Shown: one piece after another, positions 5,336-57,164 of the stretch | Position numbering within the stretch: position 1 is the first letter of the stretch | How the letters are laid out: every line of letters starts with the position of its first letter | Assembly (NCBI GenBank): GCA_000002445.1 | Contig: AE017150.2 | Coordinates: 192,001-256,000, forward strand | Source of the DNA: Trypanosoma brucei | Taxonomy: Eukaryota | Direction of reading: 5' to 3' | Length of the DNA stretch: 64,000 nt | Notes under the pieces: model-generated | Databases searched by the model: none | What the model was told of the DNA's origin: nothing | What the model saw: only the letters and a program-made list of their open reading frames with translations | Translations under genes and position numbers: made by a program

Positions 5336-5336
<1 letters not shown>

Positions 5337-5590: not shown

Positions 5591-5602
5591 ATGAAGCAAA
5601 AA
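5591..5602. repeat. Target-site duplication (AATGAAGCAAAA), 5' side of the RIME
   Basis: Exact 12-bp copy of 5049..5060. A 12-bp TSD is the known ingi/RIME signature. Confidence 0.8.
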
Positions 5603-11035: not shown

Positions 11036-11508
11036 AAATTTTCTTCGTGCCTTCGTGAGAGTTTCTCCCCACTGGCGCGGCCATCAGCCATTACCGCAGA
11101 GCCCTTAGATGCTATCGGTCTGGCGACTGTGACAGAGTCTCCCTTTTTTATTCATCCTAACACACCCTCTATAATTTTTGTTGTAGCTCCGCAGTTGAAC
11201 GGAATACAGCAGATGGGGCGAGAAGCCTCCCACCCTGGGCTCTCCCAAAGATGTCAATTAGAAATCCTTTTTTTGGAGTTCCACATCACCGGACAGCAGC
11301 ATCTTAGTGCGGATGATACTGCTGATGGCACGCTGGCACGTGCCCAGGGACCGACAAATGAAAAACGGTGTCCCAGCAAGACGCTGCTGATCCCTGTGCT
11401 GTATGATGCCGTAGCCGGAGCACAGCAGTGTTCCCCATGAAAGGAACGCTGCTGGCTCTTGGCTTCCCCTGATGATACGGGGTACTGGACCCTGGCACCA
11501 CGTTAAGG
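11036..11508 (-). mobile_element. RIME, second copy. It is 5'-truncated by ~22 bp, has no 3' poly(A), and carries an A7 at the half-junction.
   Basis: Near-identical to the 5061..5590 element except at its ends and the internal A tract. It ends ...GAAGAAAATT directly against RHS sequence. Confidence 0.8.
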
Positions 11509-12560
11509 CAGATTCATTCTTAGTGTAAGCTAAATACTCGCTGGCCGCGGGGATCGATTCCGGTACTATCTGCGACGACCAATCTACTTAACCACTAAAC
11601 CAGCGTAAGCCGAATATAATAGCCAGCACCAACTGATTTCCCAATACCTGCACTGCCGACGAGGACGCAAGGAATCTGTTTTTCGATCAGCCCTGACTCC
11701 AGCCACAAATCCAGCCTGTGCTTCACAAGATACCACACTCTCATTACCTCTCGACGAATGTACACATCCCGGTCAAACACGTAGTCTCCTGGTTCCTCCG
11801 CATCCTCTTGAATTGCATGTTCCGGAATGCTGAAAGAGTTATATGGCCAACTCTTCTGCGAGGTGAGCACAGCAATCTCTAAATTACCGTGACGAGGCAG
11901 TGGGTCGCACAAGTCATAAGGCGTGTGACTGACATTCACCTCCTCTTCTGTCCACAACTCGGGCTCGCCGTCACTATTACCCACCACCTTCATGCCAAGA
12001 GGTAAATCATTGTGACCCGACTCTACATAACCCCACGTCGCATTATATATAGAATCATATACTCCTTCAAGGTTTACAGCACCAGCAGCTGTTTGGTCAG
12101 CTTGCTTTTCCTTGCTTCTTTGGAAATGCGCAGTGCACTGTCCAACTTCGCCGCTGCAGTGAGGCAACAAGTTCCCTTATTTGCGCTGTTGCCCTCTCTT
12201 CCCAGTGCTGCATGTCTTCAATTCTATTACTAGGAGGGTAAATAACTGCCCTCGGTAATTGAAACTCGTCAGTATCCTGTATATCCTCAAGAATCTCGGC
12301 ATCAACATTAATATATCTTCTGAGATTATTAACAAACACATCCATGGACACATTCTCTGTGTTATACGTGTTTGAGGAAAACTGATTCAAAAAGTCATGC
12401 AGTTTCATTTCACCCAAACTCGCATAATCTTCCAGCAGCACATTTTCAATAGAACTGTTAATTGATCAAGTTGGCCCTCTTCCTCCTCACGCAGTCTCTT
12501 CGAAAAATACAATGGCGCATGCAACCTATTACTATGGAAACGCCTTATTGAATTCCACAC
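11509..12560 (-). pseudogene. RHS: Degenerate RHS 5' part (divergent subfamily with GSAGIGKS P-loop), upstream of the second RIME
   Basis: ORFs 11595..12170 and 12097..12441 (minus) show LLEDYASL, DEFQLPRAVIYPP, LEGVYDSIYNATWGYV, the P-loop, and then a degenerate hot-spot region. There are stops, frameshifts and no clean start. Confidence 0.7.
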
Positions 12561-18946: not shown

Positions 18947-20686
18947 TTAACTCATCATCATATTTCGAATCATCAGTGATAGAGCTTGAAATTTAAATGA
19001 TTCGATAAATCCAACATTTCCCTTTACTCTTACAACCTTTACCAACTTTTCCGTAACTTCATTGTTCTTCCAGGCAGCGGTATGCTCAATAATATCATTA
19101 TAGGAATATTCATCCGACTTCTTCATAGTTTCCAACGCATCATGAACTCTTTTCAGACGCCATTCATAACAGCTTAAAACAAATATATAACGAGGCAAAA
19201 GCCCAATTGAATTAATACGTCCCTCCACTATTCTCCACTCATCTTCCATTTCCTTCCTCAATTCGTGTCTTCTTCTGTTGGATACCTTTTCCCTTGTATG
19301 TATTGACAGTTTTTTCCATGCCACAAATGCCTTCATGTCACGCACATCATCACAGTTTATAATAATTTGGCGGCCTCCCGTAATTGTAGTCCAGTTACCA
19401 AAGTGGGAACTATTCGGGGAAGTGAAAATAGTTACACTCCAAACATCAGAGGGAAGTTGAGTGTAAAGCTGCTGCATTGCATACCTTATGTCCATAATAA
19501 TGTGTCCTCTGTTTTCAAATTTCATTTTATTTATGGCGTTGACCGCAGCTCTCAAATATTCGTACCGCACAACCCTCCCTCTTTCATCACCCTTTCTGTT
19601 ATATATTAAGTAGGCGATCGTGTCTGTGAAATATGCAACAACATCAAGCATTCCTTCATGGAAGTGAAGCAACGAATGAAGCAAAAATGATCCAAGGCCA
19701 TATGATTTACCAATACCAGGTGTACCAATAACAATATGTATCGGTGGTCTGTGAGCTGTCTTTTCCACCCACCATGTTTTCAGATCTTTTTCGACTTTAT
19801 ACCACACGCGCACAATTTCACGACGGATGTATACGTGCTGAAATACTACTTTGCGCCCCGTAGTGTAATCCAATGCAAACCTGTTGTATGGCCAACCTTT
19901 CTCCGAAGTGAGAACAAAAATCTCCAAACCATCGGGTCTCTCCTCAATCTCTGCATCAACATTCGCAGGAAGAGGAGTTATATCCACATCTTCTTCGGTC
20001 CACATGCGCTGCGGCCTTCCATCGAACACTTTCATGCCAAGTGGCTCTGTATGATAACCCGACATCACATAACTCCATTTCGCATTATATATGGATTCAT
20101 ACAATCCTTTCAGTTCGACAGCACTACAAGCTGTTTGAGCAGCTCGTTCCCTTGCTTCATTGAGTGCATCATTCAACATGTTAGTGACAACAATCCAAAG
20201 GCGCTCTCCATCTCTCAGTCCACGAATATCCGCCTGTAACCTGACCTTTGCTTCCTCATCTGCTTGTTGCCAGCGCTGAAGATTCAATATTCCCTCATCC
20301 TCAAAGAAACCATAGACGCTGACAAAACGTTTGTACACTTTATACTCTGTTGTCGCGAATATTCGATTGAGCGCATTAACGTCATTAATATACTCTTCAG
20401 GTTCCAGTACGAACGCAGACATTGATACATTATTTTCTTCATTCACATTATATCTTCTGCCAAAATTACGCCTCAAAAAATCATTCAACATCATATTTCT
20501 AGGATGTGGCAGACCATTCAGCAAAACTGCGTCAACGCAGCTGAAAAGACCCCATTGTGGTTGGTTGTTATTCTCCACTCGTTGCTGCACTACTGGAGGT
20601 TCCGCATCGTTACGCGCAGCCTCCTCATTTTCTCGTCTCCTTCCCTCAATGTCACCCCTTCCTTCAATAGGAACCTGTTGATTCAT
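18947..20686 (-). CDS. RHS: RHS protein, intact 579-aa ORF (MNQQVPIEG N-terminal module). It lacks the usual C-terminal domain.
   Basis: Uninterrupted ORF with GTPGIGKSYGLGSFLLHSLLHFHEGM and an unoccupied hot spot at 19675..19686. It ends MIRNMMMS*, exactly where the 4318 fragment ends. Confidence 0.8.
   Translation of the reverse strand: MNQQVPIEGRGDIEGRRRENEEAARNDAEPPVVQQRVENNNQPQWGLFSCVDAVLLNGLPHPRNMMLNDFLRRNFGRRYNVNEENNVSMSAFVLEPEEYINDVNALNRIFATTEYKVYKRFVSVYGFFEDEGILNLQRWQQADEEAKVRLQADIRGLRDGERLWIVVTNMLNDALNEARERAAQTACSAVELKGLYESIYNAKWSYVMSGYHTEPLGMKVFDGRPQRMWTEEDVDITPLPANVDAEIEERPDGLEIFVLTSEKGWPYNRFALDYTTGRKVVFQHVYIRREIVRVWYKVEKDLKTWWVEKTAHRPPIHIVIGTPGIGKSYGLGSFLLHSLLHFHEGMLDVVAYFTDTIAYLIYNRKGDERGRVVRYEYLRAAVNAINKMKFENRGHIIMDIRYAMQQLYTQLPSDVWSVTIFTSPNSSHFGNWTTITGGRQIIINCDDVRDMKAFVAWKKLSIHTREKVSNRRRHELRKEMEDEWRIVEGRINSIGLLPRYIFVLSCYEWRLKRVHDALETMKKSDEYSYNDIIEHTAAWKNNEVTEKLVKVVRVKGNVGFIESFKFQALSLMIRNMMMS
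19675..19686 (-). other. Unoccupied hot-spot target site AATGAAGCAAAA
   Basis: Same 12-mer as the RIME target-site duplication. Confidence 0.7.
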
Positions 20687-22812
20687 TTCACTCTCCTAAT
20701 AATAATCTTAATTGAGTGTGTTGTGTTATTTCCTTTCTTTGTAACATAAATTTTAAAAAAGGGATAAAAGATGAGAGAATTTAAAATGGATACATTTCTA
20801 AACCAAAGCAAATATACAATCAATATCAGGAATTAATATGGCAGGTGGAAACTATTTACTAAAATTAGGATTCAATACAAATCTTATCATGTGTTTAGAA
20901 CTCACAGCAACTTAAGCACAAATAAGGTATGACAGTGCGAATAAACATTTCTCTTGGGAGGAAAAACTCAAACAACAATTCCCAGTTACTGCACACCATC
21001 ATTTCAGAAAAAATAATAATATACTTACATATATATTTATGAAAAAGCAAAGAAAATAAATGTGGCATTGCTATAAAAAATGGGAAACAATAGTTTTAGC
21101 GATAAATCATGCAAAACGTAGAATACTCGGTTGCATACAGAAAAGTGCCTTACTTACCTTACAAAATTAAAAATATACCAAAAGTAAAAATAAATATAAA
21201 ACATTATCTTCACACTTCAAACCAGACACGTATTAAGCAAGAGAAAATAATTCACATAATCCCATACATATGTTACGATGGGTATTGCATGCAGTACAAT
21301 TTAAAGGAAGTGTAACTCATATAACATTTTCAAAAATAAGGTATTGAATGACTGTTTGCTACCATCAATTACATTTCCAATGCCTGATTACACTTTTATA
21401 TGCATGAAGGAAGTTACTGATGATAACTTTGACATGCTCGAGAATCCATAACACAAAGCGACTGCTGCATGCAATAAAAAATAAAAATAAAAATAACATC
21501 CGAATTTATTTACTGACAGATGAGTGCAATTCATTCACCCAAACTTCATAGCTGCAAAAATAAACTCGCCGTTGCCAATAGGAAATAATCCCGCATAAAT
21601 ATTGAGTATCTGAAAATGATAGCAACGGGTTTCCATTTTTGAAATATATGCATAAAATACATGAGGTATATGAAGCCATATTGGTAAAGTGCCACTACGC
21701 ATGTTGCAATTTACTATCAAAAGTGTCTGCCTTATTTTATTTCTTGTGTTACTGTAACTCATGAGTATTATTCATTATTCTTTACAATACAACTGTAAGT
21801 CATTTTGCATTTTTACATATTTTCTTATTCTCTCATGCTGGAAGTGTTCCACATATAATATTCCTCAATATCGTTCACAAAATAAAAATAATTTCATTTA
21901 CTTCTGCATTCAGTTTCTTGTGTAGCAGTGTGTGCACTAATCATCCATAAAGTTTTTAATTTGCCAAATACATCATTACGAAACTATTTTCCACAAATAA
22001 ACAAACATACAAATCATTGGGACAATATCTTTGAGATATTTCCTTCACTATATTTGCAGTTCAGTAGTAATTAAAGGAAACTTTTTGTATAATTCAGCAC
22101 ATGGTGGAATTGCAAAGAAATGTGATAGTACTTATAATCAATAAGTTCCCAATTTTCCTCACATGGTCTCCTTTCATGCCTTTACATCCTTATATAATTC
22201 ACAGAGAATTACTGCAATTTCCTTCATATGATTTCAGGATTCCATAAGTCACAATACAAATAATATATATATATATATCCTCCTACATAATTTGCACATA
22301 ATATTGCTTAACATATAAATTATCACAAACCTATGACTTTACACTCCTCCTAAGAATAATAGAATCAAATTATTTCTATTTTGCATCATTACATGAAGCT
22401 TTGGAAAATGGAAAAAAAAAGAATCAAACAAAAGGTAATGTAAAGAACACAGTTTCATAATACAGATTATAACTTGTTTGTGAATTGCAGATGCAAACAC
22501 AAAATGTTCAAACAGGGAAACAGTAAAGGATGTTACTGATAATGTAAGCACAAATTAATCAAAAATAGAAACATAAATAAAATTGAAACTTATAAAAACA
22601 CAAAAATATATTACACAAATATTTACCACATATTATAATTCGCCACCCTCACACTTGAATTACAAAGAGGACATAATACACATATGTGGTAAAACTAATA
22701 CAACTCGAATATACGTATGTGCCATCTTATTAACATAATCATTCTAATATTTACTCAGTATGTATGTCTGTGTGTGTGTGTGTGTGTCTGTGTGTAGAAA
22801 TGATGAAATGTA
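20687..22812. repeat. Hybrid intergenic block. It is U1-like for the first ~440 bp and U2-like from ~21190 to 22812.
   Basis: 20687..21125 matches 15568..16010. 21190..22812 matches 7990..8805 and 31850..33461. Confidence 0.75.
22761..22796. repeat. Imperfect (TG)n microsatellite
   Basis: Direct read. A shorter (TG)7 sits at the homologous position 33431..33444. Confidence 0.9.
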
Positions 22813-23312: not shown

Positions 23313-23613
23313 GATGCATTGAAGTGTGTAATAAATTAGTGCATGAGTAAACTATTCAAATGTTGGTGTTTAATTCAAATTATAAACTCTGCACTATGAA
23401 TGTCTCTCGATGTTTATAATTTGAGAGAGCAAAAGTGACGGCGCTACTATTTATTTCTTCCAGTTCATGAATATATAAATATATTTATACATATATAATC
23501 AGATGTGACATGCAAAAGCGTTTAAACATCAGGCATGAACATCTTTCCATTCATTTAAAGTAAGACGATACAATAAGGTAAGTTTAGGATGAAGTGAAGG
23601 TATCATAATGTTA
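23313..23613. repeat. Dispersed repeat A, copy 1. It is in direct orientation relative to 62138..62441.
   Basis: About 300 bp at ~90% identity. Confidence 0.8.
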
Positions 23614-24157
23614 ATATCTTCCTTCAAGCGGAGGATTCAATTTAAATAGGCGTACTTCACAAACAATAGTAAAATAACTGAGAAAACTTATATCACTTAA
23701 TCGTTATTTCCTTCAATTCTTATTTTGAATCGCTCTGTACCGTCACACCTTCAATAAAGTATATAGTGACGCATTTCATACATCCTACCTAAGCCATCTC
23801 TCATAGTCATAGCTCTCAACAGCAATAATAACAAATAATGAATAGTTTAGTTCTTACCTTCCCTTTTTACTACCGACAAGAAAGATATACGAAATAATTA
23901 TCATGCTGGATAAACAGTAAGCGTTCCTCATTATCCTACACAAAATATGAATTGAAACGATAATTTACTAACGAAGCGGAAGTGTCTGAAAGCGTCTTTA
24001 ACCCGTCTCCTGTGCGGGGCGAAGAGGGTTGTGTTGTGTGGGCTTTCTAAAAATTTCACTCTCTTGCAGACAGCTGCGTAAATAAACGGGAAGTACAGGT
24101 GTGTTTAGAGAAATATAACCGTACAAAATAATACTCTGCACTCCTATGACCAAAACC
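23610..24157. repeat. Dispersed repeat B, copy 1. It is inverted relative to 61563..62106.
   Basis: About 545 bp matching the reverse complement of 61563..62106. The A/B junction falls on GTTAAC. Confidence 0.8.
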
Positions 24158-24849
24158 ATTCATAATGCAGGCTTTCAAAATACACGACATCATCTCAACA
24201 AATTGTAATTATTTTTTTTTGCATAATGTCCTCCAGAAGACAGAACAACAGATGACACAGTTAAATAACACATGACAAACAAGGAATATAACCGCACATC
24301 CTCAGCAGTAAATGTTTCAGTTTCTCCTTTAAAAAAAACAAAGAAAAATAAAACAGTTTCACACGTGTGGTCCAAAAGCTGCATCAGCCAATACAATATC
24401 TTGACAACTTGTCATGCAATCTTGCCTCAAGAAGAAAATAAAACATTCATCTCTGCTTTCCCTTAATTGATAAATGAGATCCCATGCTGTGTTAACTCAC
24501 GTCTCCATTCAAAAAGTTGACTCAACGTTGTGACGAGGCAGTGACCAAAAACAATCCAAATGCAATTCCAAATTTCTTCATATTACGTTTTCAGTTTTAT
24601 TACACATTTCCCCAACCATTCCGAGTACTAACAGGAATAATTTGGTTCTATAATAATGCATGTGTTTTCTACAGCTCTTTCATTTTGTTATGATCCGCAC
24701 AAAAATTATATATGTGGTTGTTGATTCGTCCGGTTAATCAAAGTAACAATCATAATAATTAATTTTCCCCTTTTCTTCATTTTTTCTATTAGCACATGTG
24801 CACCTTGGTGAGATCACTTTCACTCATTTGCACTGATTGGTCAACACTA

Positions 24850-26940
24850 TTTAGTTCGTTATTCAACACACTCCCTTACATGTCCTCTTCTCACCATTTA
24901 TAACCCACACGAGCAGCATCAAATATAAATTGTGAAGAGGTATGAGATCACAAGGAACTCGCTCTCATTGAGAAGGTTGGATGCGTCATATATATATATA
25001 ATCATGTAATCCCTTTTCATTTCAACAATACGCAAACCTCAACTGCGGAATCGACTTTGAATGAGTTGACCTCGTCAGCATGAAACGGAGTCCGCCCAGT
25101 GGCATGAACATTAATCTTATCAGTAAACATGTGTTTGAGGTGTTGGTAATAAATGGGGTCAAAGAAAACATAAGTGCGTATCATCTTCCCCGTTATGCCC
25201 GAGTGGAAAATATACATCATCTCCTTGAAGATAATTGTATCCATGTTGTATCAATTCCTCATCCAGCTCCTTATCCCTATCAGTACCCAAACGCAGTGTC
25301 ATCGCCGAATTTTTTCATGAATGCACTCACACCTTTGAGCTAACGAGTTCCAGCAACTTTGCAACTGTCATACGGCTCGGGAATCCATGAGAATTTATGA
25401 TCATATCTGGGCAAATGCCTTTACTCATTGAAGGGCATGTTAACACACCATCAGTCATGAGATCCACTACTCCCTCCAGACCGTGCCGTGAGGAAAACTT
25501 ATTTCAGACCTCGGGACCGCAAACTTCTCTCGTGGCAACTTTAACTTTATTGTTCTACATCCATTGATATATCCGAGTCACTGGAAGGTGAGAGATGACC
25601 ACATTTGGTTCACAACAGCAGGCTGAGGGTATTTATTATATTCAAGAAAATTAGGTCTTGGTTCCTTGAAAGGCACGGGAGTTTATTTGTTTACAAAAAT
25701 ATCAAACTGACAGACAGCCGCACCTTTACTACTGGCAATACCATCACTACTAAAAGCATTGTGTCTCGCAACATTCCAATCTGTTGGAAGAATTATATCA
25801 TACATACTCACCGTTGGGAAGTCTTTCCAGTTTCATCTCATGCTTACAAAAAACACACCACCCATAGCCACAATTGAGCGAACTGCGGTTGTGTACACCT
25901 TTGAGTCTTCAATATTGTAACCTCTATAGCTCATAATGCATACCATCGTATTAATTCCTGCGCCTAATATTTTGTAGTTGCTTAGGTTCATAGCCTTCGT
26001 CCAGCAAAGGGATAGTTGAGAGTAAGCACTCAACATAAGTACTGTGTCCATTTATAATGTACTGATTATACGCAATGGTTCCAACAGCTTGCTTGCCCAT
26101 GGCTGACTGTAATGTGTTTCGTACAAATTGATTGTGATGTGGAAAGGAGAATAATGCTAGCGACAACTCCAAGTGAGTCTCGTGTACTGCTCAATGTCTT
26201 TGTGGTGAACTGCTAAAAGACAGACATTCGCTTCGTCATATAAGTCAATGAATTCCACAACAAACCTTCAGCTAAAATATCGTTAATCGAGCACTTGCTT
26301 GAACTCAAGTTATCCAGGTGTTGAGAAATTACAGCGTGTTTCCCATCGCGAACGAAAACATACAACCTCACGATCCTTCCGCCGACACTAACAATTCGAA
26401 CACTATTCTGGCGGTCATTTATCGCAATTGAAACGTGTGGATGCAAGCGGCCTGTGTTCCTCAGGGTTCGTAATACATCCTGACACAAACGGCTCATGTA
26501 TCGATAAACGCACATCAGCGCTTCATTGAGGAAAACTGTGTAGTATTTAAGAAATTCGTTAAGGCTGATATAATCTATTTCCTCCACTCCAATATTGTAC
26601 GCATCCGCGTGTCAACAAACAAATTATTCATGTCTAGTGTTACCTGACTAAGAATAGCAAAATTATTAACCAAACAGCAACAACTTTCACCCTCTGGGGT
26701 ATCGCAAGGAGGGACATACACCATTCCCACATTGACTTGAATAGAGAAATAATGATCCGCACATGTGGGTCAATAGACGAGGCCATGGTCACTCCACTGC
26801 TGCCGTTACATATGATCACTGCATTGTTTTCGTATCAATGTTGATGATGATATGGGATTTGCTGCTGGAGGCAACCAACAACATAAGTTTAAGGTTGCCA
26901 CGTGTGGAGAGAGGCCCAACTGCCAACCCTCAACCAGGAT
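24850..26940 (-). pseudogene. Pseudogene for an RNA polymerase second-largest subunit (Rpb2/Rpa2/Rpc2 family). It is frameshifted and N-terminally truncated. The polymerase class is undetermined.
   Basis: These motifs appear in N-to-C order on the minus strand, each with the canonical Rpb2 sequence it matches. GLAVGPLSTRGNLKLM corresponds to [36 protein letters not shown] corresponds to [33 protein letters not shown] corresponds to CYSGYNQEDS. VKVRLSVS...SRAFQGTKT corresponds to VKVRVRTT...SRHGQKGT. GITGKMIRTYVFFDPIYYQHLKHMFTDKINVHATGRTPF corresponds to GHTGKK...[25 protein letters not shown]. The motifs are split across ORFs 26213..26587, 25951..26172, 25833..26051 and 25017..25244, all on the minus strand. 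Confidence 0.6.
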
Positions 26941-27958
26941 AACAGAAGTGATTATAAGGAAAGAGAAGACAACATATCATAGCATGTTTACCCACCGACA
27001 AATAATTGAAGAAAGAAAAAGAAAGAGAGGAAAATGGACGAAATCACGTCACCAGCTGCGTGTCTGCGAAGAACACCATCAAGAGCTGCTCCATAACTGC
27101 AACCATAACTAACATGTATAATATAATTATAACAGCTCGTATATGAAACAGCACATCCAGTAACTGCTTCTAATGTTTGCATATTTCACTCCGTCACAAT
27201 CTCTCTCCCATGACACCTACTGGAAACACAACTCAGAGGAGTTTTAGTTGAGGCATGTTTCCAATACGCTCTCTCTACCACGGATGGCAAAGAAGCAAAA
27301 AGTACTATTACATTTTTGTTCTTTTTATCATTGGACTATAGATCCCTATCTCTACACGGATGGAAAATTTAGATTGTATAAATGAAAAGAAGATGTGAAA
27401 AGTTAGTGTAGTATAATCCAATCCTTTAGTTAGTAACAGCACAAATGAAAACAAAACGTTACAATGTTTTCTTACGTCCGTCGATAACATTATTTCTGTC
27501 TTCATCTGTGCCCCTTAAGATTACGGTGTGGCTTAACTCCAGTTACGCGTTAGCCGATAAAATACTACTTTTACTATTCATTAGTCATCTTCATTTCCAC
27601 ATCCCTTCCCTCACCTCCGACAACTATGTAAATTACCACGCCCTTTCCTGCACTAACCGCCGCATTTGATTGCTGATTGAAAAGAATAAGATGATTACTA
27701 CACCCGCTATTTGCTGAATATTACCCCCTTGCAGCGCATCCTGTCATGTCAAGCATTAAGACAAAGCCATTTACCCTGTCTTGGCAGTCAGGACTGCTGG
27801 CCTCCCAATGATACGACAACTCAATTTTACATTAAATGAAAAAACGCCGCCTCGCCCCACATTAGCACCGTACACTGTTGACTGCTTGCGTTCACCATAA
27901 CATACCAGGCCGGATATTTTTACCCAGCTTCCACCTCACCTAATGCTATGAAATCGTC

Positions 27959-30484
27959 TCACCCTCCTTGCGCTCCCGCTTGCTCGTTGCGTGGCTGCGG
28001 CGCAGGCTCCATGGCCAGAAGTGGAGCATCCCGATACCAACATTCATCTCTATATGCTCGCATTAGCTGCCCCTGCATTTCTTCCCTTAACGTTACTTGG
28101 TATTGAGCCATGTTTCTCCACATATCTGCCGCTTCGGCGGGGTTGTCGCCATCACAAAGCTGCCATCTTGTAATCACACCACCGTTAACCGAATTAATGT
28201 ATATCATCTCCCAAACCATGTTGCGGGAAAACGCACCCCAATCAGAAAAATATCTTGCCATGTTTTCTCGGAACTTCTTCACCTTATCCGTAGTGGTGGG
28301 GTGCCTCTCCGACTTGGTTACTTGTAAAAGCACAGCTATATTTGGAGTGGTCGGTGGCGCTGCTCCGTCACGGTTTCTCCTGAACCGCCCCTCAACGAAA
28401 AAAAAGCCATCCACCACGGGTTCATTGCCTGTGGCAGGGCGGTAGAGAACCATGTATTCACAATTATCAATTGGTTGCTGGTGGGTCGCAGGTAAGGCCT
28501 TCTGCCCAATGAGTCTCAACTGCTGAGGAGCCATGTCGTTCAGTATGCATCGTTTCTCTTCCAGTCCGCCAGGCCGCTGCAGGTATTTTAAGTTTTCTGC
28601 GATAACTTTAAAAACTCGAGGGAAAAGAAGCGAAAGCAACGCCCTTGATTCAAACACGTTGGCTGCGGCACTCTCGTCTGACATCGTAACTTGACAGATA
28701 GCCATTTTCTCCACATCAATGGCAAGCAGTTTGAAAAATATAGCATTCCCAATGCAAACCGAAAGTGGCCGGCAGCGGTATTCATCGACGCTCTCTCCGG
28801 CATCTCGCACACGGACGATTTTCACTAACCTGTGCGTTACCTTATCATTTCGCCAATCGGCAATTTTCCCCATTATGTCCTCGTAGTGACTTTTGTTGTC
28901 ACCATTGATGGACGTTATCATCTTTTTTGCCTGAGACACACGTTTTGTGTACCCCGCGCTGTTGTAAACGCAACGAGGCACTGGCCCAACCACATTAATA
29001 CGGCTCTTTATTGTTTCCCACTCATTTTCAAGTTCTTCTACAATCCTCGCCTGAGCTTCTTCATCAAGTGCCGCATAGCCTGATGCTACAGACAGCTTAG
29101 TCCATGCCACAAATGCCTTCATGTCACGCACATCATCGCAGTTTATAATAATTCCTACGTCTCTCTTGTCTTTTGACCAGTGATGAAAATGGGCCTCATC
29201 CGGAGAAGTGAGGAGAGTTACACCCCAAGCGTGAACCGGCAGACCATCGGGTGGCGTCTGCGCATTCTTGCATATGTCAACAATGATGTGCCCTTTTTTT
29301 TTCTTGAATACTAACGCAGCTATGACCCTAACAGCAGCTTTCACGTCTTCATATTCCTCAACCCTTCCCTCTTCCCCGGGTTTCTTGTTATATATTAAAT
29401 AGGCGATCCCGTCTGTGAAATACGCAACAACATCAAACATTCCTTCATGGAAGTGAAGCAATGAATGAAGCAAAAATGATCCAACACCGTATGATTTACC
29501 AATACCAGGTGTACCAATAACAATATGTCTCGGTGTTATATCAGCTTTTTCCACCCACCTTCCTTGCAGCCCTCGTTGGATTATATACCACACGCGCATA
29601 ATTTCACGACGGATATATACATGTTTAAAATTTTCCCAGCATATCTCAGCGTCATCCAATGCAAACCTGTTGTATGGCCAACCCTTCTCCGAAGTGAGAA
29701 CAAAAATCTCTAAACCATAAGGTCTCTCCGGCACTCGTGCATCAAGATTCGCAGGAAGAGGATTTATATCCACCTCTTCTTCAGTCCACATGTGTGGCGG
29801 TCTTCCATCGAACACTTTCATGCCAAGTGGCTCTTCATCATAACCCGACATCACATAACTCCATTTTGCATTATAAATGGAATCATACACTCCTTCAAGG
29901 TATACAGCACCATCAGATGCCTGGGCAGCTCGCTTTTCCGCTCTCTTGGCGGCTATCACTGCAGCATCCAACCTTCCCCTCGCCACGGGACCAACAAATT
30001 CCCTTATTTCTCCCTTTCCCTTCTCCTCCCACTGACTGAGGGTGCTAATTTCCTTTTCGTCAAGGTAGTCTACCTTCTCAGACAGATCAATAGCTGTCTT
30101 CACTGTTTTAAACTCATCAGTGCCCCGTACCCTTCCTAGAAGCCTGGCATCCAAAATATAATCCTCCGGGCTCTGAACAAAAATGGGCATCCTAACATTT
30201 TCTGCTTCAGCCACCGCAAAAGTCCCGCCAACGAACTTCTGAATAAAATCGTTCACTGTCATATCCCTCAAACCCGCATAATCCTCCAGCAGCACATCCC
30301 TCACCTTACTATCCATAGTCCAGTTGGGCCCCCCTTCAGTTCTCTGCCGTATTTGTGGAGGCTGAGCAGCAGGAGGCGGTACATTTTCATCCCGTGGTCT
30401 CCTCATGGCTGCTCCAAAATTACCTGCCACTTGTGGATTTTCATTATTTCCTTGTGGAGCTGCGGGACTATTTGCCCTTGACAT
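27959..30484 (-). CDS. RHS: RHS protein, intact 841 aa. MSRANSPAAPQ start at 30484; the listed ORF extends further upstream to 30601.
   Basis: Full-length ORF with GTPGIGKSYGVGSFLLHSLLHFHEGM, an unoccupied hot spot at 29464..29475, and the C-terminal PVVDGFFFVEG and WEMIYI motifs. Confidence 0.85.
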   Translation of the reverse strand: MSRANSPAAPQGNNENPQVAGNFGAAMRRPRDENVPPPAAQPPQIRQRTEGGPNWTMDSKVRDVLLEDYAGLRDMTVNDFIQKFVGGTFAVAEAENVRMPIFVQSPEDYILDARLLGRVRGTDEFKTVKTAIDLSEKVDYLDEKEISTLSQWEEKGKGEIREFVGPVARGRLDAAVIAAKRAEKRAAQASDGAVYLEGVYDSIYNAKWSYVMSGYDEEPLGMKVFDGRPPHMWTEEEVDINPLPANLDARVPERPYGLEIFVLTSEKGWPYNRFALDDAEICWENFKHVYIRREIMRVWYIIQRGLQGRWVEKADITPRHIVIGTPGIGKSYGVGSFLLHSLLHFHEGMFDVVAYFTDGIAYLIYNKKPGEEGRVEEYEDVKAAVRVIAALVFKKKKGHIIVDICKNAQTPPDGLPVHAWGVTLLTSPDEAHFHHWSKDKRDVGIIINCDDVRDMKAFVAWTKLSVASGYAALDEEAQARIVEELENEWETIKSRINVVGPVPRCVYNSAGYTKRVSQAKKMITSINGDNKSHYEDIMGKIADWRNDKVTHRLVKIVRVRDAGESVDEYRCRPLSVCIGNAIFFKLLAIDVEKMAICQVTMSDESAAANVFESRALLSLLFPRVFKVIAENLKYLQRPGGLEEKRCILNDMAPQQLRLIGQKALPATHQQPIDNCEYMVLYRPATGNEPVVDGFFFVEGRFRRNRDGAAPPTTPNIAVLLQVTKSERHPTTTDKVKKFRENMARYFSDWGAFSRNMVWEMIYINSVNGGVITRWQLCDGDNPAEAADMWRNMAQYQVTLREEMQGQLMRAYRDECWYRDAPLLAMEPAPQPRNEQAGAQGG
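29464..29475 (-). other. Unoccupied hot-spot target site AATGAAGCAAAA
   Basis: Same 12-mer as the RIME target-site duplication. Confidence 0.7.
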
Positions 30485-33461
30485 AACTCTCTTAATATTA
30501 ACGTAACTTAACTTCCTTTCCTTTTCTTTTTTCTCTGAAATTATAATTAACTGAATTAAAATAATAGATAAGGAAACAATAGCGGGTGAACAGTGTAACA
30601 TAATATCAAATGTAATATAGCGCGTTAATGTTTATTCACTATTGTTTGTATAATATGATATCATAATGTATTTGGTATTAAGAGGAACAATTTCAAAATA
30701 TAGCAGCTGTAAATAAATATTTCCCTTGCTTCATTATCATGTGCTAAATGTAATATATTCCTGTATCATTCTTTTTAAACCATATATAATATGGAAACAA
30801 AAAATATTACTGCCTCATATACCTGCATCAACACTACGTATATATAATCAATATTTAAAGAGAGTCAAATTCTATCAATTAAAATCAAGTAAAACAATAA
30901 ACAAAAAATTTATGGATATTAATGAAGCGAAGAAATAGAGTATCGGCACAACACAAAGATATACACACACATGGATACACACGGTTACACAACTGCTTCT
31001 TTATATACCCTCCCCATTTTTACAATACGTAACATTCACTTGCATTGAAAGAATTTATTGAAAATATAAATCACTTATCCCCTCCCCCGTGTAATCACTG
31101 ACTTCCAAAGGAGAATATTAAATAATGTCTGTAGGACAGGTAAAAAAAACTGATAGTCTTTTTGCATCAGATAACCAGAAGGTATTTCTGTTTACTTTGA
31201 TTATAAACAAAAACATCATTTTGCCTTCAGTTAAAATAAAATTGATTTACTTGCCTCCTCACTGTTCACAACTAACAACAACTAATTCAGCCCCACATAT
31301 TCACATGAATCTGATGTGCCATGGGTGTTGAATCCATTCACACATCTTCCATGATAGCGATGATACAACATATTGTAAATAATTGGAATAAAATTAATAC
31401 AATTAATTGAGGAAACCGTAAAAGATTATCATAACACATTTTTAAATTTCACTTCCTTTCATTTACACAGATTAAATATGTAATGAGACAATTCCCTTTC
31501 AGTACGTGTCCACACCTATTGTATCATCATTGTAAGTTTCCTATTGCTCATATACACAAAGTTATTATAATAACAAAAAATAAAACAACTCATTGAAACA
31601 ACTTGAAAAAATATATAACAAATAAAGGTAATAAAGAGAATGAGCGTGAACTGACAGATAATAAAATGAAACATGTCTCGCACTTCCCTTCTAAATATTC
31701 AATAGTTGGCGGATTACAAATAAAAACAATTACACATTATAAAAAGGAAAGGATATAATTACATTATGCACCTGCATGAGGATATGTAACAGCGAGTCAT
31801 AGTAGAAATAAATTGCCTAAACACAATAGTTATGGAAGATAAAATAATTCAAAATATCAAAAATATTATTCTATCAACATTCCCTTCCTCCTCCATTAAG
31901 TTTCCAATGGTTTCAAATAATAATTCACATAATCCCATACATATGTTACGATGGGTATTGCATGCAGTACAATTTAAAGGAAGTGTAACTCATATAACAT
32001 TTTCAAAAAAAAGGTATTGAATGACTATTTGCTACCATCAATTACATTTCCAATGCCTGATTACACTTTTATATGCATGAAGGAAGTTACTGATGATAAC
32101 TTTGACATGCTCGAGAATCCATAACACAAAGCGACAGCTGCATGCAATAAAAAATAAAAATAAAAATAACATCCGAATTCATTTACTGACAGATGAGTGC
32201 AATTCATTCACCCAAACTTCATAGCTGTAAACATAAACTCGATGCTGCCAATAGGAAATAATCCCGCATAAATATTGAGTATCTGAAAATGATAGCAACG
32301 GGTTTCCATTTTTGAAATATATTCATAAACTACATGAGGTATATGAAGCCATATTGGTAAAGTGTCACTACGCATGTTGCAATTTACTATCAAAAGTGTC
32401 TGCCTTATTTTATTTCTTGTGTTACTGTAACTCATGAGTATCATTCATTATTCTTTACAATACAACTGTAAGTCATTTTGCATTTTTACATATTTTCTTA
32501 TTCTCTCATACTGGAAGTATTCCACATATGAGATTCCTCAATATCGTTCACAAAATAAAAATAATTTCATTTCCTTCTGCATTCAGTTTCTCGTGCAGCA
32601 GTGTGTGTACTAATCATCCATAAAGTTTTTAATTTGCCAAATACATCATCACGAAACTATTTTCCACAAATAAACAAACATACAAATCATTGGGACAATA
32701 TCTTTGAGATATTTCCTTCACTATATTTGCAGTTCAGTAGTGATTAAAATACACTTTTCTGTATAATTCAACACATGGTGGAATTGCAAAGAAATGTGAT
32801 AGTACTTATAATCAATAAGTTCTCAATTTTCCTCACACGGTCTCCTTTCATGCCTTTACATCCTTATATAATTCACAGAGAATTACTGCAATTTCTTTCA
32901 TATGCTTTCAGGATTCCATATGTCACAATACAAATAATATATATATATTTGCTCTTACATAATTTGCACATAATATTGCTTAACATATAAATTATCACAA
33001 ACCTATGACATTACACTCCTCCTAAGAATAATAGAATCAAATCATTTCTATTTTGCATCATTACATGAAGCTTTGGAAAATGGAAAAAAAAGAATCAAAC
33101 AAAAGGTAATGTAAAGAACACAGTTTCATAATACAGATTAAAACTTGTTTGTGAGTGTCAGATGCAAACACAAAATGTTCAAACAGGGAAACAGTAAAGG
33201 ATGTTACTGGTGATGTAAGCACAAATTAATCAAAAATAGAAACATAAATAAAATTGAAACTTGTAAAAACACAAATATATATGATACAAATATTTACCAC
33301 ATATTATAATTCGCCACCCTCACACTTGAATTATAAAGAGTACATAATACACATATGTGGTAAAACTAATACAACTCGAATATACATATGTGCCATCTTC
33401 TTAACATAATCATTCCAATATTTACTCAGTGTGTGTGTGTGTAGTGATGATGAAATGTAAT
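30485..33461. repeat. Intergenic repeat block U2, copy C (the longest copy)
   Basis: Collinear with 6617..8805 and 21190..22812. Confidence 0.8.
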
Positions 33462-36400
33462 CGGCAGTCCCTTGACTCGGAATGCGGTATTAACATGTCC
33501 CAGATTTTAAGCATTCTTGTTCTACAAGGGAAGTCATTTGCCTTTTTTTCCTTTTTGCGCAAACAAAAAATAAAAAGAAGAATTCAGGTGTTGTAGCGGA
33601 TAACTAGCTTTTTGAATCGTAGCAATATATTATGAAGCATGTACCACAGTCTACTCAGTATTTTTTTTATTTTTTTGACTTCCTCTGATTTCATTAACTT
33701 TCGTACATGTTTATGAATGATACTTTTTGTGAAAGTTATAACAAGAAACTAACTCTTATTTTTAGTCACTAGTTTCACAGTTCTGAATTTTCGCAATGAT
33801 GCCGCGGCAAAATATCATTCTTGCTTCTTATTTTATTGAGGAGTTACTCTCGTAGAAGAAAGCAGGATGAAAATACTCAAGACTTCACCAACAGGGGCCA
33901 GACATTCCTCAAAAAAGAACGAACAAAGGAGTTAACCACACAACCCTTCTTACAAATGAGCGTCTGTCAATGTGCAAGAAAAAACAATGGCTCTTCAACT
34001 GCATGCAACACTAGAAACGATATCAGCGGCTTCAATCCCACAGTTAAAGCCACTTGACGAAACACTCAGCATATGAGACCCTTGCAAAGCAATGTATTGG
34101 TTATTTAAAGAAAAAGAAAAAAATGTATTCCTTCACGTGCCGTTTCAACAAACTGCTAGCCTAGAACTAAGAGTATCAAAACACACGTGATATCTACTCG
34201 TCGAATATTTGCTGCCCAGCTGACTCCAAACTCACAAAGAGGGAACCAGACGTAACCACTTACAGATCAGCCGCTAGTGTCCTTTAAGTGCATACAAATA
34301 CACAACAGCAATCATTGTCACACTAATTTTAGGCATCATTTAATACGTATTTAACAAACATGATGCCCGACTCCAAATGTGAAAGGCACTCGTCACGCAC
34401 CCTCCCCGCCAATTCCACAGAATGGTGGAAACGAAGCGGCAAAGGAGGAGCGGCGCGGCGCTGTTAAACCGAATAGCTGCGCATCGGCCGCATTGAGTTT
34501 GTGGAATGCGGAGAAACCACCAGTTGAGTTTAGAGTAAGTGATGCCTCTCACAGAGCAGTGGCGGCAGAAGGTGTCAAGAACCTTTTTTTTAGAAACCTC
34601 CCGAAATGCGTTGAAACGCCAAGCACTACCGTCACCCCCAGAGCAAAAACGTTGGGGAGAAAAAGCGAAACAACGCGTGGGTTGTGGCGCTGAAACCGCA
34701 ATTACCAACTGGCAAGGTGGATGGACCGCGACAAGTGAGCGAGCGAGGGAGGCATCGCGATATGTTTGTGAAATGTGGGGAAATGTAAGAAAAGAGACCA
34801 CTAAATATGATAACAATGTCAGACCAACGAATATGAGCAGCGTCCAATTCCGTTTAGAAACCCTGTCCGGAATTTCTGTCCGTAAAACAACAACTGGCAG
34901 CGCCGACGAATTCGTGACAGAGGGCTGCGGGATGCCAACCAAAAAAAAAAAACAACAACAGGCCACAACCACACCGAATCAGAAAGTCCACATAAAAGTA
35001 ACCAAATACACGCAGCTCAAACGCTCAAATGTTGGATACGCAGCAGGTGAACGACGGAAGGAATATTATCCGGCGCTTGGAAGCATGTCACCACCGCAAC
35101 GTCTCCTCAGAAACTGGACAACTTCAAGTGTGGAGTGGCGGCTTGCACATGAACGCAGTTAATGTCAGAAAAGGGGTGAAAGGCACAGCGGAAGGAATGG
35201 CGAAGCAAAAAAGGCAGGGAGGCGGTGCCAAGACTCCCGAGCAGCCATCCGCTAAAACCTACGGCACATGACGTGCATGGTATGGCGGCACGGCGCAGGA
35301 GGAACTGTTGCAACGAATCAGACATGACTGTTATGGGCCCGTCACTGCCTTCAGAGACTTTTCCAAACGAAAGGAAAGAGCGCAATGCGACAGAGTGATG
35401 CTGACGTGTGCAGAAGTCTGAAGGCATTATATCAGCGAGGTCTGTGGTGACTAAAAGCCTGAGATGGGCACATGGTTAGAAGGGTGGTGGATCCTGCGAA
35501 TAGTTGAAAGTAGGGTGCCTGTACTTTATTTCTCATATACTCGCGTGCTCCGTATACAAAATATAAATGAGAAATGGAGCCAACAAACGCGCCAGCAAAG
35601 TGACTCTGTTCCTTTGCAATGTCCAGACAATTCGTACTAAGACTCTTAAAGCTATTGGACCGAAGGAACCTCACGACCATGTGCAGCCGGCAAACGTGCG
35701 AAAATGGGTAGCTGGCCGGCATCTCACCCTCCACTTGGCAGCTTCTCTCAACTGGAATATCGGGGATTATGGATGGTGCGGAAAGCTCATCATTTCGTGG
35801 ATTCTTCTGAATAGCAATGGAGTCTGAAGGTTAACCCAAAGAGTTAAAACGTTGAACAGACCTGGTGACCCACATGGTCTTTTTTGTGTGTGAAAAGTGC
35901 CGGACTGCCTTACTGCATCCCTTCGCGTGCATGCAAACTGAGCACAACGCAATGTCTCCTTTATTGTTTGAAGCATGAAAGCTCATGGATCATAGCCATG
36001 TGACATAACGCCTTGATTACGTTAGACTGATAGGACCGCTGTGTATTTTTTGTCGTTTATGTTGGGATTGGTATTTGATAGTAGCATCTGCTAGTGTGCA
36101 ATCATTCTAGTGAATTCGGCACATTACAGTGATTTCTTTTGAGAGTTTCTCTTCCCCCTCACTCTGAGTAGATGTGGGGTAACTGGTTTCTTTTCTGACG
36201 TTAACATGGTATGCCAGTTCTGTTTGGCAATGTTACGGTATCATCACGCACAGTTTCGAAAATTGTCTGTAAAGCTGTTTTGAATCCATGCTGCGGTTGT
36301 CACGAATCAGAAAAATTATAACGGAGACGGGTCTGCAAAAAGGCATTGTGAGTTAGCGACAATACTGCGTATCAAATAATGTCACATCACGATGATTACA

Positions 36401-39400
36401 GTGCTGCTTCACAACTTCAGCATAGGGGAATGGCGGAATCGTTTCAAATGCGGAACAGATAATGAGAGTCCAAATCTCCCTCTTAAATTCCCGTGTCCGC
36501 ATAAACTGTATACAGGTGAAACATTTCTTTCAAGGAAACTGTATTTACGAGATTTAATCCAAGGAGAGATTAGGAATGCAGATACTTCATGCCTTCAATG
36601 AACAGTCGTACATCAGACCTGTCAACTCCATTAAGTGACTGAGGAGTTAACCTATTTTAAGGTGTATGGACATGGAGACATGGTTTGAGCAACCAACAAC
36701 CAGTATTCAGTATAGTTGGCTTATGTGAAACCAAAACGTCTGCATCCGTGTATGTTCAACCTGACAGCTTCGCTTAGCCTTTTGTTAAGCTGTACGACAC
36801 TCTTCCAGGTGTATGCAACAAAATACAGTTATGCGCGTGATCTTGCAAGTGAGGATGGTAGTCTACAGTAAGCATGCGAAACAGGGAAAATATATATTGA
36901 GCTGCTCTGAATCCATTTCATGCAGAATGTAAGAGCACAACCCGGCTGATATTTTGATATGAACCAACACACTAAAGAATGATTTAAGAAGCAGGAAAAA
37001 GTTGATCCAAACTGCACTTAGCCTGGAGTTGTTTCCGATGCTCCTAGATAATAATGTGTGTGATGCGTATGGGGATTCATTACTTTTTGAGGGTGTATGA
37101 AAAAGGATGAGGAGCAGAAACTGTTCGGAAGATGACAATATTTACGATTCTTATTATTAGGTCGATATCGCCTTTGTGATGGCTTAATGGTTTAGTATGT
37201 ATGAGTGCTTTATACTCGCTTTATTTGAACACAAACTCATGCATGCGCACAAGTTGTGAAGCTGCATACCCACAGATATCAATTAAGGGCATCAACCTTT
37301 TGGTGTAAAGCAGTCATTTTCATATGAAATTAGTATTCCGAAAGAGCTACCTGGGAGAGGAAATTGAAGGTCCACCGCCCTTGCCAACATGCATTTTATC
37401 TGTATTTGTGGTCAAAATGGAGGTCACATATAGTCGCACCATTTCATTGACCGCTGCGTAATATATTCCCTTACTTATACTCATTAATATCCACTGACGC
37501 CTCTCTTTTCTCTCTTTGTGTGCGGGAAGCAGTGCCGTCGTGCAGAGAGAATCGCAACATTGGATCAGAGAATGGATCTGGAGTGTGTTAGAAGGCAGTC
37601 AGAGACAATAGAAGTTGTGACGGTTGTGGTGTTCTGGGTGAATTTGGATTTGATTAATGATGAACCTCCTCGTGTAGCGGTAAGAGACCCTGATGAAACT
37701 GCACACAAAGAAACTGGAGGAAGGGCTCACAATGGTCATAAACACGTCTTATGGATGTGATAATGTATGAAGTGAAAGTGTGGATACAAGGTTGAGAGAA
37801 ATCATGTGTGAGACTGTATTGGCCAATTTTTACAAAATGGGGATGAATTCTCTCCGTGTATGAATGCTGCGTTGGAGAGTTCAAATGATACGTTACATGT
37901 ACAAGCTGGAGAGGGTGGCGACTGACGTCTGAACTTGGAATGGATGTAGAAGACATAAAGCATTGTACCGATGCGAAAGCAAAGGGCGCATGCATGTCAG
38001 CGATAGAAAACTAGTTTAGACTCTTTTTATTCGGATATGCTGTGGCGGAAGCAGTGTGCATGCAGAAACTCCGAGCATCCGACAAAGGGATATAGAAGCG
38101 TTAACGATAGTCTCCAACTCATGGAAATCCGGCGGACATCAACTCCTCTCAATTATAAGTTACTTCGAGCTTATCAATTTCCTCCTTATGAGGTCCCATT
38201 TCCTCCACGCACTTTTGCGTCACAACAATGGAGAGAAGGAGAAAATGTTGAAGCGCATTATGCATTCTATCAAACTTGTTTGTGTATGTATTTGGTCTCT
38301 CCTGATATGAGTGTAACCGTAACCAACATGTTACCGGCTCTAGGAATCCATGAGCATGATGTACATAAAATATCACGAACTTTGTGCACGTCCCGATGTT
38401 CCACTTAGTGAGCGTCATCAAACTCAATGAGCAGAACCACATGGAAGGAGGAAATTGTGTATTTGTATGCATACATGTGTGGCAATATGTTGGTTTGTAA
38501 CACTGTGGTGAGAGTAAATGGAAGTATCTTTTAATATGGAGAATACCGCACATAAGCACACCTCAGCGTATCGCCAAGAAATAATGGCGGAAACGGGTCA
38601 GACAATGTTGCAAAGATATCAGTCTCAAATATATACATATGACACTAGCCATTCTCTGGTCACACAACAAGGAAGAGCAAGGTGTAGCGTTGATTGGATG
38701 TAACGGCAGGATGAATCATTTCCTTTAAAGGACAAATGAGCAGATGCCCGTGTGCTGTCCAAACCGGCTAACTGTGAATTGCATTTCATTGAGAAATATT
38801 TTTTGTTAATTCAGCAGGCAGAACGCCTTCTTTTTTCACTCTCACTTTACACAGACATGACGGTCGGTAGAGGTTAGTACCAGCTGATGCATTTACAACC
38901 GTGTACGGTGATAAATGTTAACTGATTGCTCCTGTCATGTGACTCTCGAGACGTTACCAGGTGACCATGGAATTATCTTAAAGGTGTTTGGATAGAAGGG
39001 CATCTAATAGGTGCCGGTCTTCTAATACAGCGAAAGGCTTGTAATGCACGCGTATGTTTGGTAAGATGCGAGGAAGCCATTGATTGTACTGTTGTAGTTA
39101 GCTGTTGCGCGCCGGATTGACTGGGTCTGGTTGCAGCACATCTCAGTAATGAAATGCAGAAACCTCTCATCCATCGCAGTGATCGGCAAATATGTCTTAA
39201 TTAAGTTGAATGGCAGGTGGTGTTTATGCATATGATGGGTTGCTCGACTGCCAGAAACCTGGATTAAAGCAGCAAAAGGTGTTGTCGTTTGTTTTTATCC
39301 ATGCATTTGCTCAAACTGTCTGTGCATCAATGCGTACTATCATTGTCTTTCAGTATAACCAACCTTTCTATGCCATCACTAGCAACCCTCTTCCATCCAT

Positions 39401-39453: not shown

Positions 39454-41809
39454 ATGCCGGCTGACGAAGCACAGCAAGCTCCACCACCTCTCCCAATTAC
39501 CTTTACGACGCCAACACTTTTCCTGTTGCTGTTAGTGTTACTTCAACTTTATCAAATATGTGTTATTTTTAACGCAGATGACAGTGGGAAAGTTACGGTG
39601 AAGGCAATATCTCTGTTATACAGTCGAAAATGGGACCTACAAGTTATCAATGCCGTGAATGCCGGTTTCAATGCCTCCCTGGTTGCTCGGAACTGGACGG
39701 TGGCACTCGGGGTGAATGTTGAAGTTGCCCGCTCCCCCTCATACGGCATCAATTTGGTCCAGTTTCTGAATGATTGCCCGAAGGCACTAAATGGCGATGA
39801 CGCGAACGAGCTGTACAATACATCAGAAGGGAACCAACTTGTTGGATTCGGTCCCATGACTGAGTATCGACAGGGCATGAGGGATACCTGCCGCATTTTT
39901 GCTTCCTGCTCCTTGGGGCCACTGGCGAACTTATTACCCCAGTACGTTATGCGGTGAGTCACTTACGTGTGCTAAAGCAGGGTTTCATGTATCTTGATGG
40001 GCTCCCGGGAGGTAGTGAGGCATATAATCAGGCAGTGGATTTCATATGGCGCATGGGGTACAGTTTCTGTTGTGTTTTCACGGTGGAGGACAAAGCGGGT
40101 GGCCAAGGTGGATCACCTGAGGAATTCGACGCCGTATGGGATGAGTTTGCTGGGGGAAATCCACAGGCTGTGATTATGTTTGCCGCCATGAAGCCTGATG
40201 CCAAAAAAAAAAATCTCGTGAGGTTGGTGTCTGATCCGCGTACGGAAGATACGTTCATGCCAACTCCGATCTTATTGCAGAAATCAATCGTGAGCATCTG
40301 GAAGGAGACATTGGAGGAAGCGAATGTTCCGTTTGTTCCCCATCGTGTGATTCAGACGGGGTCAAATCCTCTCGCTGAGGAAGATTATATCGACGCGGTA
40401 AAACGCTTTCAGACTGAAATGAGGAACTATTTGACTGAATACAAGGAGTGGAGTGGCTTCAATGATGCGGATCACTTTCTAAAGAGTGACGCGGATGGGG
40501 AGCTGACGATCAATGGCTGGATTACTGGAGAGGTGTTGGCGCGGGCACTGCGTAGTCATGGCTGGATGAAAAATCGCACAGCCGTCATTGAGTCGCCGTT
40601 ATGTGATTGATGGCATCGTGATCGGTGATTTTGGAGGTGAGTGCGATAGCTTTACCACTGCAAATGATGCCACTTGCCGCTGCAACCGTGGCAGGAAGGA
40701 CGTCTACATGAGGGAGATTGCTGAAAATTACCGCCTGCAACCGCCTGTTGGCAGGCATATTATGACAACTTCCTTACAGTGTTATATCGATCCCTCATTC
40801 CTATAGACACCACTCACCGGCCTCACCGTTGATATGGAAGATCACGAAGAGCTTCTGAGAGGTTCCACACAGTTTGAAACTGGTGTGTCCACCACGACCT
40901 CATCTGGGAAAGTTGGCGAGATGAACAGTTTCTTCCTTCAGAGGATTGCCACAGATACGCACAAGGTTTCCAACGAGCTCAACACATTGCGGCAGGAAAG
41001 GATAGTCACTGCCGTGTTTGGCATCGTAACAAAAGCGGTGCTCGGTCTGACATTCATTGACCCTATGACACCAATCCCCCATCTGAACAGTTTCAGCAGG
41101 AATGTGATCCACTTGTCCCCAACAATGGAACAGCAGCTATGCATGTTAGCGAGCTCCCTCTCCAGCATTCGTGCTGACTTCCACCAATCGCGTTGTAAGG
41201 GGCGGTGAGGCGTCCGCTTTCATTGATGCGCTAAGAAAGGCACTGCTCACATTTGGCTTGAACCTCAGCTCTACCGTTGTGTTGACTGCAGGGGACTCTG
41301 TTGGAGAGTATCTTTCGAAAAGTGGTAGCACTTTTATCATTGGACTTGCTGTTGATGGCATTGTGGTAATTGAAGAGCATCTTCGTATCCAAGACAAGGC
41401 GCGCGTATTTGTCCAGTTCTCTGGCATTGCGCTGCTGTAAAATGAGTTTGTGCAAGCCTTCGACAATAGCGGTGGCACCAAGCACCTTTTGTTCGCAACA
41501 AGTTTGCTTTGCTACCCAGACATCAACACGACATCGTAGACTGTGCAACGGTTCCACGAGGCGGTACGTGAGGTGGAAAAGTGGACGCCGCTGTCGGTGC
41601 TGGGTTTCGCCACGGGTAGACTAATCCAAGAGAATCTGCAAAACATGGAAAGGGTAACGTCCGGCCTGCTGGTCGGCCTTTTCTTCAACCAAACAGTAAT
41701 CATCATTGATGGCATGCGTTATATGGGCCGTACAAACATTATGATTGCATAATCAACGTTGTCGTTACCGCTGATGATTGCATGTCAAACTTCGGTGCTA
41801 CGGATATAA

Positions 41810-57162: not shown

Positions 57163-57164
57163 TT

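Follow-up and report, generated by a model that had tools for sequence, protein, structure and literature searches.

Between two RHS genes on chromosome 2 of Trypanosoma brucei lies a broken gene for the second-largest subunit of an RNA polymerase (Pol). Which polymerase did it once belong to, how did it come to lie in an RHS array, and is anything of its function left? We analysed it within a window of 64,000 nucleotides (contig AE017150.2, positions 192,001 to 256,000; all positions given below without a reference name are those of this window). In our judgement the segment 24899-27093 is, with a probability of about 0.92, a non-functional, unprocessed pseudogene of RPC2, the second-largest subunit of RNA polymerase III (also C128), which reached the RHS array of chromosome 2 as a DNA copy of chromosome 1 sequence, together with part of a neighbouring gene, and has decayed neutrally since then. 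An earlier note on this stretch had proposed a pseudogene of a polymerase second-largest subunit on the minus strand between two RHS genes. This was borne out by the Rpb2 domains, which follow each other in N-to-C order, and the 23-residue motif quoted there is indeed present, in the open reading frame (ORF) 25951-26172 on the minus strand.

Identity of the polymerase fragment

The raw frames of the minus strand matched the Pfam families Rpb2_4 (E 5.5e-10) and Rpb2_6 (E 1.1e-26 and 1.5e-22). After repair of the reading frame, the translation contained the last 29 residues of Rpb2_3, followed in canonical order by Rpb2_4, Rpb2_5, Rpb2_6 and the start of Rpb2_7, with an E value of 5.6e-86 for Rpb2_6. 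These scores indicate a homology to the Rpb2 family far above chance.

When the hand-stitched translation was compared with all chains of the PDB (phmmer), human RPC2 (302 bits, E 1e-88) and yeast RPC2 (287 bits, E 3e-84) scored above RPB2 (209 bits, E about 1e-60), and the RPA135/RPA2 chains reached only about one third of the RPC2 score (104-106 bits, E about 1e-29). In a large protein database, RPC2 proteins were the only matches, with those of kinetoplastids ranked at the top. The cluster representatives in this database were only about 50% identical to the copy; T. brucei RPC2, a non-representative member of the 90% cluster of T. theileri, was reached by opening that cluster. The intact protein (P0235, XP_001218757.1, CAJ15945.1) comprises 1129 amino acids and has the same sequence in strain TREU927 and in T. 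b. gambiense DAL972. For alignments at the DNA level we used the RPC2 locus on chromosome 1 of DAL972 (L002) as reference. Positions 26739-24902 of the window aligned to L002 11445-13239 with 82.6% identity over 1864 columns, gaps counted (blastn), and the RPC2 copy was 86.1% identical to the functional gene over 1775 ungapped columns, with 28 insertions and deletions (indels; MAFFT). The repaired protein is 74.9-75.5% identical to RPC2 of T. brucei, 69.5% to that of T. congolense and 68% to that of T. cruzi. The blastn match to the RPC2 locus shows that the copy is Pol III RPC2, and since it scores higher against RPC2 than against RPB2 or RPA135 and has T. brucei's own RPC2 as its nearest relative, the pseudogene belongs to the Pol III group.

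The alternative that the fragment stems from RPA135 (Pol I) or RPB2 (Pol II) is refuted, with a practically negligible probability. The only feature in its favour is the DK-I-x-V-H-x-T-G motif, read by eye, from which the earlier note had derived a lean towards Pol I (A135-like) and a relevance to the unconventional use of Pol I by trypanosomes. This motif occurs as DKINVHATG (TDKINVHATG in context) in the ORF 25017-25244 on the minus strand and corresponds to the functional DKMHARATG after four substitutions. As a mutated DKMHARATG, it carries no paralogue signal and therefore gives no tie to the unusual Pol I use of trypanosomes. Against these paralogues stand, besides the mutated motif, the score of 302 bits for RPC2 versus 106 for RPA135 and the nucleotide identity to the RPC2 gene. 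Both the lean and the relevance drawn from it were thus not upheld.

Structure and decay of the copy

The copy is collinear with the central and 3' part of the functional gene, shares the order of Rpb2 domains 3 to 7 with it and carries residues specific to its lineage (Table 1). It differs from functional RPC2 in lacking domains 1-2 and the last ~46 codons, ending about 140 nucleotides short of the RPC2 stop codon, in 19 frameshifts and 5 stops, in a GC content of 41% versus 49%, and in its location on another chromosome. The homology runs through all three frames of the minus strand, connected by the 19 frameshifting indels, and the longest ORF of the region comprises 124 amino acids. The earlier note had counted at least four frames, which is more than one strand offers. 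It had also described an (AT)7 tract; the tract is real but consists of six repeats and represents a 6-nucleotide expansion compared with the functional gene.

Table 1. Features of the pseudogene and its neighbouring genes, with positions in the window
Feature	Position	Strand	Remarks
RPC2 pseudogene fragment	24899..26739	-	codons ~482-1083 of 1129; blastn, MAFFT, Pfam
Putative internal-deletion junction	26740..26745	-	WD40 codon ~45 joined to RPC2 codon ~482; three partner sequences compared
WD40-repeat gene, 5' end (~45 codons)	26746..26884	-	start codon kept, then a stop; tblastn, blastn
Copy of the DOT1-WD40 spacer, 5' end of the duplicated segment	26885..27093	-	blastn
(AT)6 microsatellite, ATATATATATAT	24988..24999		inside the pseudogene, codons ~1056-1058
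Intact RHS gene, RHS4-type cluster	27959..30601	-	directly upstream of the pseudogene; Pfam DUF7578, RHS_N, RHSP
Truncated RHS ORF	18947..20686	-	next downstream gene on the same strand; Pfam DUF7578, RHS_N, RHSP 1-238 of 312

Polymerase homology had originally been assigned to the whole of 24850-27958. It is real, but RPC2 DNA fills only the first segment of Table 1, whereas 26746-27093 stems from a WD40-repeat gene and its upstream spacer and 27094-27958 has no polymerase homology. With the RPC2 proteins of eight kinetoplastid entries as queries, tblastn at E=10 revealed no RPC2 homology in 26740-27958. The peptide PRLLTHMCG, considered as a further RPC2 match, was rejected, as it is the N-terminus of the WD40 gene. 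For 27094-27958 and 24177-24898 no identifiable match was obtained. On the plus strand of the region no Pfam match was detected, and the region contains neither Rfam families nor tRNAs.

The WD40 piece was recognised by blastn, in which 27093-26746 matched L002 7563-7909 with 82.4% identity and the shorter 27093-26765 matched L002 7563-7891 with 83.5%. This part of L002 consists of the 213-nucleotide spacer upstream of the WD40 gene and the first ~45 codons of that gene; amino acids 1-55 of the WD40 protein matched 26884-26747 with 53.6% identity (tblastn). At the functional locus the WD40 gene is followed by RPC2, and the copy in the window is collinear with this order, lacking only L002 ~7910-11440 (~3.5 kb). 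The collinear spacer and WD40 5' end beside the RPC2 piece mark the copy as a segmental duplicate at the DNA level with an internal deletion of ~3.5 kb. The junction may contain a short microhomology, TCAA(T), as far as this can be read from diverged sequence, and it was presumably formed by one deletion rather than by two separate captures.

The pattern of substitutions was analysed at the 1775 aligned positions. Mismatches amounted to 15.2, 11.2 and 15.2% at codon positions 1, 2 and 3, respectively. Sites with G or C in the functional gene differed at 21.1, 21.5 and 21.7% and sites with A or T at 7.7, 4.0 and 9.2%. The lower divergence at position 2 is largely an effect of base composition, with A/T sites still differing least at this position. 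Codon differences comprised 54 synonymous versus 148 non-synonymous ones, and the 5 in-frame stops remained after frame repair. There were 168 transitions versus 78 transversions, and GC-to-AT changes outnumbered AT-to-GC changes 169 to 48, with GC content falling from 48.6% in the functional gene to 41.3% in the copy. Polarisation against the outgroups T. theileri and T. cruzi assigned 138 changes at positions 1 and 2 to the pseudogene lineage versus 7 to the functional lineage. These values indicate that the copy has decayed without coding constraint and is not a functional gene; because of the equal rates at the codon positions, the frameshifts (19 of the 28 indels in the MAFFT alignment) and the stops, it gives rise to no protein.

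The small indels are strongly biased towards insertions, with 25 insertions versus 3 deletions in the MAFFT alignment and 31 versus 4 with a second aligner (about 8:1), and the WD40 piece contains 3 insertions versus 1 deletion. Exact tandem duplications of 1-6 bp account for 11 of the 25 insertions. Pseudogenes more often gain deletions than insertions. To our knowledge, T. brucei lacks classical end-joining. We put forward, as a tentative and rather doubtful proposal, that the copy may be read as a dated log of the mutations that arise in the RHS chromatin of T. brucei in the absence of constraint, with ~8:1 insertions over deletions and ~3.5:1 GC-to-AT changes. If the insertion bias holds true for other pseudogenes, it would point to a distinctive signature of slippage or of repair by templated insertion in an organism without classical end-joining. 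The fragment provides clean neutral sequence for estimates of the T. brucei mutation spectrum.

Origin of the copy

An intact paralogue elsewhere in the genome, which the earlier note had suggested looking for, was found: RPC2 (XP_001218757.1) is encoded on chromosome 1 of TREU927. From its 40th codon on, the RHS ORF directly upstream of the pseudogene agrees in all 841 residues with XP_951497.1/AAQ15582.1, a protein of T. b. brucei TREU927, which identifies the window as chromosome 2 of this strain. With the intact gene on chromosome 1 and the copy on chromosome 2, the duplication is inter-chromosomal.

The chromosome 1 site of RPC2 is the ancestral one, because its gene order is common to T. 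cruzi and T. theileri. At the RPC2 loci of T. theileri (L003) and T. cruzi (L004) the genes are arranged as PHO4, DOT1, WD40, a gene for ~460 amino acids, RPC2 and a gene for ~270-280 amino acids. The order on T. brucei chromosome 1 (PHO4, DOT1, WD40, RPC2, ~270-amino-acid gene) matches both outgroups except for the ~460-amino-acid gene. This gene, which shows a weak VPS9 match, lies between WD40 and RPC2 at L003 8316-9713 and L004 8209-9588. Since tblastn yielded no trace of it at the T. b. gambiense locus (L002 9105-10000) or in the window, the T. brucei lineage has either lost it or moved it elsewhere. Downstream of RPC2, both outgroups carry RHS-like sequence at a distance of 3-5 kb (L004 16655-18187 in T. 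cruzi; L003 18744-18947 in T. theileri, at the contig end), and in T. cruzi a DGF-1 gene lies beyond it (L004 20105-23393). In these two species RPC2 therefore seems to mark the edge of the chromosome core next to RHS sequence. In T. brucei, RPC2 is found 4.7-8.1 kb into the chromosome 1 assembly of DAL972, and the TREU927 chromosome 1 contig with RPC2 also encodes RHS1 and RHS4 proteins.

For the timing of the duplication, sites with a derived residue specific to T. brucei were defined by comparison with T. congolense and four other trypanosomes. At 8 of these 10 sites the copy agrees with T. brucei; one of the remaining two has kept the ancestral residue and the other shows a different one, and no T. 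congolense-specific states occur in the copy. Because it shares most of the T. brucei-specific states, the copy arose after the split of T. brucei and T. congolense, late on the T. brucei branch. Since the duplication it has gained about 14% substitutions.

Taken together, once the T. brucei lineage had separated from T. congolense, the RHS array of chromosome 2 in all likelihood received a copy of a chromosome 1 segment of at least ~5.7 kb, which began in the spacer ahead of the WD40 gene and stopped shortly before RPC2 ends. It was inserted in the orientation of the flanking RHS genes. The internal deletion, which presumably followed, joined WD40 codon ~45 with RPC2 codon ~482, and truncation at the 3' end left the copy ~140 nucleotides short of the RPC2 stop codon. 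GC-to-AT-biased substitutions, many small insertions and the expansion of the microsatellite belong to the later decay. Ectopic recombination or repair between RHS arrays may have mediated the transfer; a source gene at the edge of the core, abutting RHS sequence, makes such a route into another RHS array plausible, though unproven.

Some observations weigh against this interpretation. At both breakpoints, repeat homology of the RHS type or of any other kind was absent, 24177-29091 being unique within the window, which leaves the recombination route hypothetical. The copy shows no excess of third-position divergence, though the functional gene should contribute synonymous changes; a small contribution of the functional lineage explains this loosely. 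Finally, the position of functional RPC2 next to the RHS array of chromosome 1 is suggested by the end of the DAL972 assembly, by the RHS proteins on the same contig and by published descriptions of chromosome I.

We also considered a processed pseudogene, made by a reverse transcriptase of the ingi/L1 type from a polycistronic WD40-RPC2 pre-mRNA and inserted into the array. RHS arrays are known insertion targets of ingi and RIME elements, and trypanosome primary transcripts are polycistronic, so that intergenic sequence alone would be compatible with an RNA intermediate; the RPC2 content of the copy is moreover biased towards the 3' end. However, the copy stops inside the RPC2 coding sequence, there is no A-run and no recognisable target-site duplication at 24899 (weak signals could have been erased by decay), and no spliced-leader sequence was seen. 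The junction links two coding sequences and not splice or poly(A) sites, and the ends are unlike those of a mature mRNA, with intergenic DNA at the 5' end. We therefore regard a retro-copy as very improbable. Even less credence can be given to the second origin envisaged in the earlier note, a remnant of a displaced functional locus, in which the copy would be the relic of the original RPC2 gene and the functional gene would have moved to chromosome 1. The retained upstream neighbour is what one expects of a relic in situ, but the chromosome 1 context of PHO4, DOT1, WD40, RPC2 and the ~270-amino-acid gene recurs in T. cruzi and T. theileri, which contradicts this origin. Furthermore, no trace of PHO4, DOT1, the 273-amino-acid gene or the ~460-amino-acid gene of T. 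cruzi and T. theileri was found in the window by tblastn, and the copy, carrying T. brucei-specific derived residues, must be young relative to the shared synteny. The other proposal of that note, capture of a duplicated subunit by the RHS region, is the correct one of the two. A separate ORF of 275 amino acids at 56936-57763, examined as a DOT1 candidate, resembles DOT1 in length only and is a C-terminal RHS fragment.

It is likewise highly improbable that the fragment has been kept for a function, be it as a source of antisense or small RNAs directed at the mRNAs of RPC2 or WD40 or by way of a truncated protein. Its orientation, the same as that of both flanking RHS genes, would allow co-transcription, and pseudogenes of T. 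brucei reportedly give rise to small interfering RNAs (Wen et al. 2011, as cited in PMC7563717). A protein product is contradicted by the equal codon-position rates, the frameshifts and the stops. At 83-86% identity, few long perfect matches to the parent mRNAs are left, and neither an inverted second copy of the segment within the window nor an Rfam family was detected. Small RNAs against RPC2 or WD40 transcripts seem less likely than the use of the copy as a mutation record, and nothing positive points to them. A neutrally decaying DNA duplicate of the chromosome 1 segment remains the reading that we prefer.

Comparable cases and chromosomal surroundings

The setting of the copy is that of the unprocessed pseudogenes found in subtelomeric and RHS regions of T. 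brucei, such as RHS, leucine-rich-repeat protein (LRRP) and ESAG4-like adenylate-cyclase pseudogenes, and the window itself holds broken RHS copies, a split LRRP gene and an adenylate-cyclase fragment. Among the annotated RHS genes of TREU927, 78 of 118 are pseudogenes (PMC6393297). Unlike these cases, the parent here belongs to no subtelomeric multigene family; it is a single-copy, essential housekeeping gene from the core of another chromosome. In Leishmania major, too, the gene of a Pol III subunit has been partly duplicated: LmjF.02.0680 is a truncated copy of C82, regarded as a possible pseudogene and explained by a recombination event that involved two chromosome ends (PMC11894013). It concerns another subunit in another genus, and the Leishmania copy keeps its open reading frame and conserved domains, whereas the T. 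brucei copy is thoroughly broken.

Full-text searches, whose reach did not extend to the original chromosome I and II papers, returned no mention of an RPC2 pseudogene. As the window belongs to the long-annotated TREU927 reference, it is probable that the annotation already flags the pseudogene. It is a routine case of an unprocessed pseudogene, located in the reference genome of a parasite that has been studied well, and it is of little import for transcription biology, with an intact RPC2 on chromosome 1 and no relation of the fragment to Pol I. It does show that sequence from the core edge of one chromosome has been copied into the RHS array of another. Exact-protein look-ups for the same locus in other assemblies, made with the RHS neighbour in three forms, with P0258 and with the 124-amino-acid ORF of the pseudogene, gave no match.

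Besides the two RHS genes listed in Table 1, truncated or frame-broken RHS copies were observed at 9606-12170, 231-860, 5204-6616 and 56936-57763 on the minus strand and at 54032-54676 on the plus strand; the copy at 9606-12170 is broken into three consecutive ORFs. Non-coding repeats of 96% identity lie between RHS genes at 21246-22771, 31919-33442 and 8038-8808. A second repeat, 23327-24177 versus 61539-62441, is 92-98% identical, partly direct and partly inverted, with ~38 kb between its copies. Both repeats may be RIME/ingi remnants or RHS spacers.

The genes are encoded on the minus strand up to ~31 kb and on the plus strand from ~39 kb, which, together with the negative GC skew, places a strand switch at about 31000-39000; the sign of the GC skew changes near 34 kb. 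Beyond the switch, a fragment of an adenylate-cyclase receptor domain (ESAG4/GRESAG4-like) is located at 39954-40610 on the plus strand. It is followed on this strand by a leucine-rich-repeat protein split into two overlapping ORFs (44314-46977 and 46922-48745), probably a frameshifted LRRP pseudogene.

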